A DNA stretch of 64,000 bases from Laspinema palackyanum D2a. GTDB taxonomy: Bacteria > Cyanobacteriota > Cyanobacteriia > Cyanobacteriales > Laspinemataceae. Both the position numbers and the translations under genes were made by a program. Positions 17,260 through 20,001 of this stretch are shown one piece after another (the first letter of the stretch is position 1; every line of letters begins with the position of its first letter). The notes beneath the pieces are model-generated. The model did no database searches, was not told the origin of the DNA, and saw nothing but the letters and a program-made list of their open reading frames with translations. Where the stretch lies: assembly GCF_025370845.1 (NCBI RefSeq), contig NZ_JAMXFF010000042.1; one strand, given 5' to 3'.

Positions 17260-17404
17260 TTACAACCCCACCACTCGTGTTTCAGCTTGTCTGAAAGACT
17301 TGGGTTTTACTACGATTTCTACATCCCGACCCAACGCATTTAAAAAACGAAACAACCGAGTAGTGGAAAAAGCCGATAGCTTGCCATTCACTAATGCCGC
17401 CACT
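17260..17404 (-). pseudogene. 3' fragment of a higA-like HTH antitoxin gene, separated from its 5' part by the IS insertion
   Basis: The translation ...KVAALVNGKLSAFSTTRLFRFLNALGRDVEIVVKPK looks like a HigA-type (HTH/Xre) C-terminus, judged from recalled HigA sequences rather than an alignment. Removing the IS plus one TSD copy joins it in frame to the 5' part at 19448..19626. Confidence 0.55.
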
Positions 17405-17410
17405 TTAATC

Positions 17411-19447
17411 CTTACGGTTCGCTCATTTTTGACCCTACTCCCTGAGATGGGAAACCATAACAGAAGGCTCACCCGAAGTGGAAGGGGGTGGCCCCTCATC
17501 GTCGGCCAAGTTCGTATAAATCTTTAGGGGAATATTTAGACGAATTAAAATTTGTTGGTGAATGGGAGAAAATTTGGTAAGATAGCGATTGCCTCCAAGA
17601 GCTATTGGAACCGAAACCAAGCTAATTTCTTTAAAGGCTGCCAACAAGAGTTCGGAACTAGGTCTGGCAGTTTTCCGTTTGGGGTTGCCGGGGTAAATTC
17701 CTGAAATTTTTTCATCATTTTTACTCAAACTTCGGCGCATCTCAAATTCTAAAAGTGTTAAGAGGCGTAATCCAATGGATAGCAATCGGATGAGCCCGAT
17801 AATATGGTCTTCTCTTTGTAAATACATCGGAGTCAAAGATAAAGGGAATCCTTTCATTCTGCCGAACCCTTTTTCAACTAAATATTCATCCCGATAAACT
17901 AGGACTCCATCAGTGACTGACAACTGCTCGGATGGTGAATTAGTAGCATAAACTCTCCAAGAACAACTGGTGAGTTTTTGGGTTAAAGCCTCGGATAATA
18001 CCTGGACACTTAAAGTTACTAACTCTTCTTTAATGATTTGAGCCGGTTGACCTTTGTACGCCCTCCGTTGAGAGATTTTCCTCTCGGTCGCATACTCAAC
18101 GTTCAACAATCCCTCTACCTGATATTTTTCGATTATTCTTTCGACTTCGTTCTGGTAAGAGCTTAAACCAATCAACCGTTTTTTACCTTTTCTGGGTTGA
18201 TTTAATTGCTCCAGTTCTAGTTGAGCTTGTTGGACTCGCTCTTTTAACGAGTTTTGGGCCGCATTAGCTATCTTGATTGACCTGACTACTAGATGTCGTT
18301 CTTTCCAGTTGATTTTGTTTCCTTCAAACTCTGCCATCTGCTCGACTTCTATTTCAAAGGCTTCCGCTATTTTAGTCGGCTCACCCGAATCTAAATCTCT
18401 ATAAACCTCGGTTAATTCTTGAGCGGTCTGTTCTCGCTCCATTAAATAACTGGTGAGAACGGATTCAGGAATTTGAGTGGCACTCAAGGGAACTAGATAA
18501 TAATCTCCCTGTTCATGAATAAACCAGCGTGTTTGCATTGCCCCCATCTTACTGTCGCCTACATACAATAGTCCAGTTTTTTTCAGGGTTTCTCTGACTC
18601 GGGTAATGGCCGGACAATATAAAGGGTCGTCGGCTTTATTTCCCGCTACTATGTCCGTGGCCACTGGCATTCCCAAGGGGTCTAGGGTGGCCAGCATCAC
18701 TTTAATTTGAGCTAAATCGGGTCGATGATCTTTACTGTACCCGTATTGAAATAATCCTTGTTCATTCACGCCACAGTATGAAGATGCAGTGGTAGGATCT
18801 AGGCGGACTCTCTCGGCTTTTAAGTCATATGCTTGTATGAGGTTACCCCCCAGTTCTTGCTCAAACTTTTCCCAATGCAAGGAGTCACTTAGGTATCGCA
18901 ATACGGCTTGTAATCGGTCATCACTTAAATCTAAGGCTCTAATAGCAGTCCCGGTAGAAATACTTAACGTCTCTAACCGATTTTCTGCCCAAGACTGAAC
19001 ATGACTTAATCGATGGTCGGCCTGTGATAAAATGTAACTCAACCATACTACAGCTACCCATCCTAGACTTATTCCTTGCCAGTTCCCATGAGTCATGAAG
19101 TGTTTGTCTAGTAGCGGTTGGATTCCCATTCGCTCCAATACTGCTAGTAATACAGGGATGTCATCTACTCTTTCGACGTCGAATTCTTCGTTGTTGTTCA
19201 TCCCTATGTCCTGCCTACACTACAAAGGTTTGAGCTACAATACCCAGGCTCTTGAGGAGTCCTGATGTTAAGATAATCCTCTATTTTACACTAAAAGCTG
19301 GTCAACTCCATCTGGAGTTTTTAATACAAGTCTCTCTTCCTTTAACTTTCCTCCTATTTTTGAATGAACGCTCGGTTATTTTCTAGTCATAAGGAAAGGA
19401 TTAAATTGCCATCTTTTGTACTTCTTTAAAAATGAGCGAACCGTAAG
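17411..19447 (-). mobile_element. Insertion sequence, IS1634/IS4-family-like, about 2.04 kb. It has ~25-bp imperfect terminal inverted repeats and a 6-bp target site duplication, TTAATC.
   Basis: Left end cttacggttcgctcattttt (17411-17430). Right end aaaaatgagcgaaccgtaag (19428-19447) is its reverse complement. TTAATC flanks both ends (17405-17410 and 19448-19453). Confidence 0.75.
17435..19201 (-). CDS. DDE transposase (IS1634/IS4 family-like, 588 aa)
   Basis: Single long ORF filling the IS. Transposase-like length and composition. Family assignment is from memory of IS1634-type proteins and is tentative. Confidence 0.7.
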   Translation of the reverse strand: MNNNEEFDVERVDDIPVLLAVLERMGIQPLLDKHFMTHGNWQGISLGWVAVVWLSYILSQADHRLSHVQSWAENRLETLSISTGTAIRALDLSDDRLQAVLRYLSDSLHWEKFEQELGGNLIQAYDLKAERVRLDPTTASSYCGVNEQGLFQYGYSKDHRPDLAQIKVMLATLDPLGMPVATDIVAGNKADDPLYCPAITRVRETLKKTGLLYVGDSKMGAMQTRWFIHEQGDYYLVPLSATQIPESVLTSYLMEREQTAQELTEVYRDLDSGEPTKIAEAFEIEVEQMAEFEGNKINWKERHLVVRSIKIANAAQNSLKERVQQAQLELEQLNQPRKGKKRLIGLSSYQNEVERIIEKYQVEGLLNVEYATERKISQRRAYKGQPAQIIKEELVTLSVQVLSEALTQKLTSCSWRVYATNSPSEQLSVTDGVLVYRDEYLVEKGFGRMKGFPLSLTPMYLQREDHIIGLIRLLSIGLRLLTLLEFEMRRSLSKNDEKISGIYPGNPKRKTARPSSELLLAAFKEISLVSVPIALGGNRYLTKFSPIHQQILIRLNIPLKIYTNLADDEGPPPSTSGEPSVMVSHLRE

Positions 19448-19626
19448 TTAATCTGTTCAATTCCTAACATTTCTGCCGCCTCAGTTTGAGTCATATTTTG
19501 GGCGGCGATAATACCGCTAATTCTCCTGGCAAGTTCTGCCTTGACCAGTAATTCATCAGAATTTTCTAACTCTAAATCTGCGAATACATTGCCACTCCCT
19601 GCTTGTACTTTAATCGGGTGATTCAT
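19448..19626 (-). pseudogene. 5' fragment of the higA-like HTH antitoxin gene interrupted by the IS. The ORF reads on into the IS inverted repeat to a stop at 19426.
   Basis: MNHPIKVQAGSGNVFADLELEN...MTQTEAAEMLGIEQI has an HTH_XRE-like helix. The last residues (NLRFAHF) are encoded by IS terminal sequence. Confidence 0.6.
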
Positions 19627-19633
19627 ATTTTTA

Positions 19634-20001
19634 CTACTGATTGATGTAATGTTCTGAGTAATGTTCTTTGGCACGTTTAAGCCTTCCCTCGATTAGCTCA
19701 ATATCCTGCTTAGGCGTTGCAATCCCTTTTTTTGACTTCTTCTGAAAAGCGTGTAGGACATAGACCACACCCGCTAACTTTAAAGTTTAAACTGCTCGAT
19801 AAGTGTCTCTGTCAAAATCTTCGAGAACTTCAAGCACCCAGCCCCCTTAAAGCCTTTGAGTGGTTTCGCAGACGGGTGCTTTTCACCACATTGAGCCAGA
19901 TATAGCGCATAACCAACACCTTGCCGAACCTCCTCCGGGAACTCTTTTAAATCCTCAAGAGAACTGCCAACCCACTCCACTGGTTTTAGTAATTCACTCA
20001 T
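19634..20001 (-). pseudogene. higB-like (Gp49/RelE-ParE superfamily) toxin gene, inactivated by a frameshift and an in-frame TAA
   Basis: Frame A reads MSELLKPVEWVGSSLEDLKEFPEEVRQGVGYALYLAQCGEKHPSAKPLKGFKGAG. Frame B continues VLEVLEDFDRDTYRAV*TLKLAGVVYVLHAFQKKSKKGIATPKQDIELIEGRLKRAKEHY. The TAA lies where the intact reading would place a Tyr (likely TAC). Confidence 0.6.

Follow-up and report, generated by a model that had tools for sequence, protein, structure and literature searches.

A toxin nonsense mutation probably preceded insertion of an IS1634-family element into the antitoxin gene of a higBA-like module in Laspinema palackyanum D2a

Introduction

When both genes of a toxin-antitoxin (TA) module are broken, which of them was lost first? 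The question is raised by a minus-strand locus of the cyanobacterium Laspinema palackyanum D2a, located in a 64,000-nucleotide stretch of contig NZ_JAMXFF010000042.1 (hereafter the window), where a higBA-like operon carries several point lesions in its toxin gene and an insertion sequence (IS) in its antitoxin gene. An initial annotation, made from the sequence without database searches, proposed that the toxin was lost first, that the antitoxin thereby became dispensable, and that this order could be read directly from the locus.

Gp49 toxins belong to the RelE/ParE superfamily, and HTH_37 antitoxins to the HigA superfamily; in modules that combine them the toxin gene comes first. HigBA of this type is known from Acinetobacter baumannii, from M. 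tuberculosis (Rv2022c-Rv2021c, or HigBA2), and from Gp49/HTH_37 modules of Tn3-family transposons (PMC7157771, PMC5906591). Here, the D2a locus was compared with intact and partially decayed relatives. We conclude, with a probability of roughly 0.88, that a nonsense mutation in the toxin gene came first, and that insertion of the IS into the antitoxin gene followed.

Results

The toxin-truncating mutation is shared with a sister strain

The gene preceding the split antitoxin gene (Table 1) had been annotated as a Gp49 toxin gene with one frameshift and one TAA codon, the latter likely in place of TAC. Its two open reading frame (ORF) fragments, 19780-20001 and 19634-19768, fuse to a full Gp49 domain when one G is added and the TAA is read as Tyr. 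The repaired gene product spans positions 1-90 of the 90-position Pfam Gp49 profile (E 1.4e-20), and shares 98% identity along its entire length with an intact 123-amino-acid (aa) Limnospira protein (P0242) that is named a RelE/ParE-family toxin by NCBI. Intact homologues do carry TAC at the site of the TAA, and the corresponding residue, Tyr72, is invariant among 40 toxin homologues. Both annotated lesions are thus present, and a third one had been overlooked: at 19634-19636, one codon ahead of the normal stop, the CAG of homologues is replaced by TAG. The 71-aa truncated toxin is probably inactive, in which case the antitoxin would have become dispensable.

Five neighbouring proteins with exact matches place the window on a contig of L. 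palackyanum D2a; exact look-ups with its transposase, vault protein, and 96-aa protein retrieved no contigs. The sister strain L. palackyanum D2b contains a syntenic locus (97.6-98.6% nucleotide identity) with a 96-aa gene, an unbroken 107-aa antitoxin gene, a split toxin gene, hicB, and a vault-protein gene. The two strains share the TAA at toxin codon 72, the early TAG, and two replacements in the toxin; D2b differs from D2a in having GGGG instead of GGG at the frameshift site and in having no IS. Because D2b has the TAA, an unbroken antitoxin gene, and no IS, the toxin-truncating mutation is older than the split between D2a and D2b, and the insertion is younger. The proposed order of toxin loss followed by antitoxin disruption therefore holds for the nonsense mutation, by virtue of the D2b comparison; the frameshift cannot be ordered in this way, and the succession is not readable from one sequence, contrary to the initial annotation.

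Table 1. Coordinates of features at the D2a locus (positions in the window)
Feature	Position	Strand	Basis or remark
Antitoxin 3' part	17260..17410	-	HTH_37 profile 47-80; stop at 17260-17262
Target-site duplication copy 1, TTAATC	17405..17410	.	Directly outside IS
Complete IS1634-family insertion sequence	17411..19447	- (transposase on minus strand)	2037 bp; ends set by perfect inverted repeats
Terminal inverted repeat, transposase-distal end, CTTACGGTTCGCTCATTTTT	17411..17430	+	100% complementary to 19428-19447
Transposase gene, 588 aa, intact ORF	17435..19201	-	NCBIfam NF033559 and Pfam DDE_Tnp_1
Terminal inverted repeat, transposase-proximal end	19428..19447	-	Complement of 17411-17430
Target-site duplication copy 2, TTAATC	19448..19453	.	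Directly outside IS
Antitoxin 5' part (higA-like, codons 1-58/60)	19448..19626	-	HTH_37 profile 1-45; ATG at 19626
Toxin pseudogene (higB-like, Gp49 PF05973)	19634..20001	-	Gp49 match after repair
Nonsense TAA for TAC (Tyr72), oldest datable lesion	19787..19789	-	Present in D2b too
Frameshift: GGG, versus GGGG in intact homologues and D2b	19837..19839	-	Lone gap in 1174-bp alignment
Promoter-like TTGACA-17 nt-CATAAT, presumed operon promoter	20008..20036	-	Ends 6 nt before toxin ATG
Divergent hicB-hicA module, toxin apparently dead	20086..20455	+	Pfam UPF0150 and HicB_lk_antitox; aligned to intact D2c hicBA

The IS interrupts an antitoxin gene that is otherwise full-length

The initial annotation predicted that deletion of the IS and one copy of its target-site duplication (TSD) would rejoin the flanks into a helix-turn-helix protein of ca. 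105 aa. When this deletion was made in silico, the flanks indeed joined in frame, and the resulting protein was 107 aa long. This protein covers all 80 positions of the Pfam HTH_37 profile (81.5 bits) and shares 94% identity along its entire length with intact proteins of 107-108 aa. Reconstructed HigB and HigA, which the initial annotation proposed to align to intact homologues, thus both gave full-length matches (98% and 94% identity, respectively). As it stands, the 5' fragment of the antitoxin gene runs into the IS and ends with ...GIEQINLRFAHF and a stop; the truncated product consists of 58 native residues and 8 residues encoded by the IS, and has lost the recognition helix.

The order of the genes is preserved: the toxin reading frame originally stopped at 19631-19633, and the antitoxin gene starts with its ATG at 19626 after a 4-nt gap. 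The intact pairs of Limnospira genomes have the same arrangement, a gene for a 123-aa Gp49 toxin followed by one for a 107-aa HTH_37 antitoxin, adjoining a divergent hicB. With the IS and one TSD copy removed, the window aligns to the Limnospira higBA and hicB genes over 1174 bp at 95.4-95.8% identity, with a single gap that corresponds to the frameshift. The locus appears to be a chromosomal type II TA operon, placed in a variable island and composed of a promoter, a Gp49/RelE-superfamily toxin gene, a 4-nt gap, and an HTH_37/HigA-superfamily antitoxin gene.

Among solved structures, the rejoined antitoxin matched M. tuberculosis HigA2 (7ewc, E 2.2e-5) and the uncharacterised protein 2o38 (E 2.5e-18), while its score against the canonical HigA model TIGR02607 was 12.5 bits, below the cutoff of 47.7. 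No toxin or antitoxin family of NCBIfam was reached at or above cutoff by either gene, PADLOC returned no meaningful match, and solved structures yielded no usable match to the toxin, whether searched with its sequence or with two profiles. An AlphaFold2 model of an intact toxin homologue was of low confidence (predicted local distance difference test, pLDDT, 61.7), with secondary structure elements in the order beta-alpha-alpha-beta-beta-beta-alpha. Foldseek with this model retrieved RelE (1wmi_A, E 0.083) and M. tuberculosis HigB1 (7nbu_Y, E 0.1), neither of them a significant hit. The assignment of a RelE fold to the toxin is taken from Pfam and the literature only. The name higBA given in the initial annotation is appropriate only in a loose sense. 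Like Gp49-type HigBA modules, the locus has a Gp49 (PF05973) toxin gene first and an HTH_37 (PF13744) antitoxin gene second, and its antitoxin matches solved M. tuberculosis HigA2. Unlike those modules, it has both genes inactivated, and it differs from canonical HigB and TIGR02607 HigA in that the D2a pair has no sequence-level match to them.

The extent of the IS, 17411-19447, and the perfect TTAATC duplication were annotated correctly, as follows from the terminal inverted repeats (IRs) and the 6-bp copies that flank them. The IRs themselves had been described as imperfect and ca. 25 bp long. They are perfect over 20 bp, and become imperfect only if the arms are extended (21 of 25 positions). 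The 20-bp repeat CTTACGGTTCGCTCATTTTT occurs just twice in the window, versus 0.01 occurrences expected by chance, and the chance of a 6-bp TSD match is about 1 in 4096. No IS is present at the corresponding site in D2b or in the Limnospira loci. Two metagenome relatives, L005 and L006, carry a deletion of ca. 188 bp in the toxin gene, an intact antitoxin ORF, and an empty site, and have reached the intermediate state seen in D2b by another path. The empty sites of D2b, L005, L006, and Limnospira are shorter by exactly 6 bp.

One could suppose that the IS was already present in the common ancestor of both strains and that D2b later lost it by precise excision, so that the empty D2b site is secondary and uninformative as to the order of events. 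Precise excision of DDE elements between TSD copies does occur at low frequency, and nothing more direct speaks for it at this locus. An excision in D2b would have restored the codon ATT present in the D2a copies, yet the D2b site reads GCTTAA (codon CTT), versus GATTAA in both D2a copies; in addition, L005, L006, and all Limnospira loci are likewise empty. We therefore regard secondary excision as extremely unlikely. The draft status of the assembly (a 64,542-bp contig) raises another concern, namely that the IS was misplaced in a short-read draft or that the frameshift is a sequencing error. The frameshift does lie within a homopolymer, and in strain D2d the same IS is collapsed into a 2038-bp contig with ca. 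six-fold coverage. A misjoin, however, would not generate a perfect 6-bp TSD whose removal restores a full-length, in-frame gene, colinear with four independent empty sites, and the TAA is a substitution found in two independent assemblies. Such an artefact is highly improbable.

The antitoxin had changed at conserved positions before the insertion

At codon 59 of the antitoxin gene, Limnospira has CCT (Pro) and D2b has CTT (Leu), and the two D2a TSD copies both read ATT (Ile). Since the codon-59 replacement is contained in both copies of the duplication, it is older than the insertion. This position and two others are strongly conserved: among 120 homologues, Pro59 is found in 109, Asp57 in 118, and Gly71 in 114. 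The Asp57Glu replacement is common to D2a, D2b, and L005, and Gly71Ala is seen in D2a only. In L005, Pro59 is replaced by His; L006, which is also toxin-dead, retains Pro. The pattern points to an antitoxin that was probably already drifting at strongly conserved positions before the IS arrived.

These data also bear on the reverse order, in which the IS broke the antitoxin gene while the toxin was active and the toxin lesions arose later, as suppressors that relieved toxicity. In its favour, the frameshift and the IS are each specific to D2a, which leaves their mutual order open. A live toxin could also have been buffered by a paralogous HigA of the kind found in strain D2c, which has no higBA at the corresponding position and carries a paralogous higBA elsewhere, with a HigA identical at 99 of 107 positions. 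Against it, the TAA at codon 72 is common to D2a and to D2b, with its unbroken antitoxin gene and no IS, so that the truncating lesion preceded the insertion; the replacement of Pro59, located within both TSD copies, is also a pre-insertion event. We consider the reverse order very unlikely. Strain D2d was outside the locus comparison, as its contig ends 2.3 kb from adhE. In the paralogous toxin of D2c (L134, 8001-8414), 15 residues (EDLKEFPEEVRQGVG) are repeated exactly, in tandem and in frame, which may be another route to toxin inactivation.

Some observations also weigh against the conclusion that the toxin nonsense mutation was followed by IS insertion into the antitoxin gene. As noted, D2a alone has the frameshift and the insertion, whose mutual order is therefore not fixed; moreover, the frameshift sits in a homopolymer of a draft assembly. 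A D2c-like HigA paralogue (99/107) could neutralise the toxin in trans, and antitoxin loss therefore need not strictly follow toxin loss. That the toxin is dead and the antitoxin dispensable is an inference. Finally, the ratio of nonsynonymous to synonymous substitution rates (dN/dS) versus Limnospira is 0.19 for higA and 0.09 for higB. Most of the divergence thus accrued under constraint, and only a few substitutions argue for relaxed selection. The same values suggest that inactivation was recent, and they qualify the description of the module as decayed: the three toxin lesions agree with it, but the decay is mild, with the toxin dN/dS against the intact Limnospira gene still at 0.09.

With the nonsense mutation placed first, the locus would have evolved as follows. 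In the ancestor of D2a and D2b, toxin codon 72 would have changed from TAC to TAA, and the antitoxin would have begun to change as well, acquiring Asp57Glu and Pro59Leu. In the D2a lineage, codon 59 would then have changed from Leu to Ile and Gly71 to Ala, and one G would have been lost from the GGGG run in the toxin gene. An IS1634-family DDE transposon would have inserted in the same lineage through a staggered cut of the 6-bp sequence GATTAA (minus strand, codons 58-60), duplicating this target and cutting off the antitoxin ahead of its recognition helix.

The IS belongs to the IS1634 family and appears to be intact

The transposase scored 287.4 bits against the NCBIfam model of the IS1634 family (NF033559; cutoff 100), with model positions 4-482 of 483 covered, which bears out the initial assignment of an IS1634-type element. 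Its score against Pfam DDE_Tnp_1, 26.3 bits, was narrowly above the cutoff of 23. The nearest relatives are likewise 588 aa long (97% and 90% identity). In an alignment of 118 homologues, 131 columns are at least 97% conserved, and the D2a transposase conforms at 128 of them; the gene therefore looks intact, and the IS looks capable of transposing still.

Members of the IS1634 family are 1500-2000 bp long, generate AT-rich duplications of 5-6 bp, and have a weak IR consensus, C-----YT; IS1634 and IS1549 themselves produce long, variable duplications of 8-514 bp (De Palmenaer et al. 2008, PMC2266710). The D2a element resembles the family in its single large DDE transposase, which scores above the NCBIfam cutoff, in IRs that start with C (CTTACGG...), and in its AT-rich 6-bp target duplication, which is within the family's 5-6 bp. 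It fits the IR consensus at positions 1 and 8 but carries G in place of the consensus Y at position 7. Its length, 2037 bp, slightly exceeds the published range, and, unlike IS1634 and IS1549 proper, it does not make long variable duplications.

Four related metagenome copies of the IS (91-96% nucleotide identity) end at identical bases, CTTACGG...CCGTAAG, with unrelated flanks. A genome scan with the 20-nt repeat as query, limited to one genome per species, revealed 41 loci, chiefly in filamentous cyanobacteria; none of them carries the IS junction of the window. Relatives of the IS are 2026-2037 bp long. The duplications at complete copies elsewhere measure 6 bp (CCAGAG, TCATCT, and TCAGGT) or 5 bp (AAACC), and a 233-bp derivative that resembles a miniature inverted-repeat transposable element (MITE) bears a 6-bp duplication, TCATTA (L015). 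Elements of 207-398 bp with the terminal repeats of the IS, similar to MITE derivatives, were seen at L009, L013, L015, L024, and L033. They were found in cyanobacteria and also in metagenome-assembled genomes that bear the labels Methylococcaceae, Crenothrix, and Ktedonobacteraceae; these labels could reflect a wide host range or mis-binned contigs.

A promoter-like site upstream of the operon

The promoter-like site upstream of the toxin gene agrees with the consensus at 11 of 12 positions, is the best such site in 17000-20300, and is kept in D2b and Limnospira. The IS lies in the sense orientation relative to the operon, ca. 560 nt downstream of this site, and no terminator-like site was found between the site and the co-oriented transposase gene. 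Because the truncated antitoxin lacks the recognition helix and no terminator-like site intervenes, read-through into the transposase gene is possible. The promoter, which the antitoxin would normally repress, would now be derepressed for good and could drive the transposase, and the insertion would thereby boost expression of the element itself. Another possibility concerns the stepwise changes at antitoxin codon 59 (Pro to Leu to Ile, and Pro to His in L005), which affect the start of the recognition helix and are seen solely in toxin-dead lineages; they might mean that an orphan repressor was being retuned and not simply drifting. Read-through and retuning, judged jointly, are unlikely.

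The neighbouring hicBA module, the variable island, and repeats

In the divergent hicBA module, the hicB ORF survives (66 aa). The 5' end of hicA, including its start, was removed by a 50-bp deletion between two copies of AAATTGTGGAAA, and hicA also contains a TAT to TAG change. Strain D2c has an intact hicBA pair (68 and 68 aa) at the same position, and the Limnospira loci share the 50-bp deletion. The neighbouring module repeats the toxin-first pattern. The cassette formed by hicB and higBA (window 17240-20455 versus L128-L133) comprises 1.17 kb of ca. 95.5% identity between Laspinema and Limnospira in unrelated genomic contexts, which suggests that TA cassettes are exchanged between genera of filamentous cyanobacteria.

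A comparison with L135 and L136 shows that the DNA separating adhE from the vault-protein gene (window 9400-20950) is a variable island. In D2a and D2b it is ca. 11 kb long and contains NB-ARC/STAND NTPase, VWA, PP2C, and kinase genes and several TA modules; in D2c it is just ca. 2 kb long, with the intact hicBA. The vault-protein gene (20946-23594, minus strand) encodes an 882-aa protein homologous to the eukaryotic major vault protein (MVP), with Vault repeats and an MVP shoulder domain (E 1e-64 and 2e-55), and is followed by a gene for a CHAT-domain protein at 25021-27057.

The TA cluster is bracketed by a 177-nt direct repeat (15963-16139 and 20489-20665; 90% identical). Related pieces recur in the Limnospira loci, and the repeat is therefore best described as a member of a dispersed family. 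The idea that it forms the borders of a mobile cassette was dropped, as the segment common to D2a and Limnospira (17240-20455) has different limits. The palindrome AGAAACC(C/N)GGTTTCT occurs four times in the window, versus 0.03 expected (16340-16354, 17165-17181, 17214-17230, and 31130-31144); two copies, 49 nt apart, are located just downstream of the antitoxin gene and are kept in D2b, L005, and L006. Arrays of a hairpin-containing motif of ca. 37 nt (AACGACTGAAGTCGTTACTACAAACAGAAG...) are found at the window ends (12-200 and 62027-62245) and beside the cluster (20658-20848), and a similar motif flanks the IS copy in L004.

Discussion

Two-step decay of TA modules that begins with the toxin has already been documented at scale. 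Among pseudogenised TA copies in Photorhabdus, 185 were affected in the toxin only, 186 in both genes, and 8 in the antitoxin only, and toxin inactivation was concluded to precede antitoxin loss (Belot et al. 2026, Mol Biol Evol, PMC13617665). The D2a locus resembles this erosion in that the toxin was lost first, the antitoxin was kept for a while and then lost, and the module is located in a high-turnover island. The Photorhabdus study reports point mutations, truncations, and deletions, whereas the second step in D2a is an IS insertion; a further difference is that a sister strain of D2a still shows the intermediate state.

The D2a locus is therefore a well-resolved instance of a known process and involves no new mechanism. 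The loci compared here form a natural decay series, from the intact module of Limnospira, through D2b with a toxin nonsense mutation and an intact antitoxin gene, to D2a with more toxin lesions and an antitoxin gene split by the IS. As such, the D2a locus serves as an illustration of this course of decay and as an aid to annotating these draft genomes.

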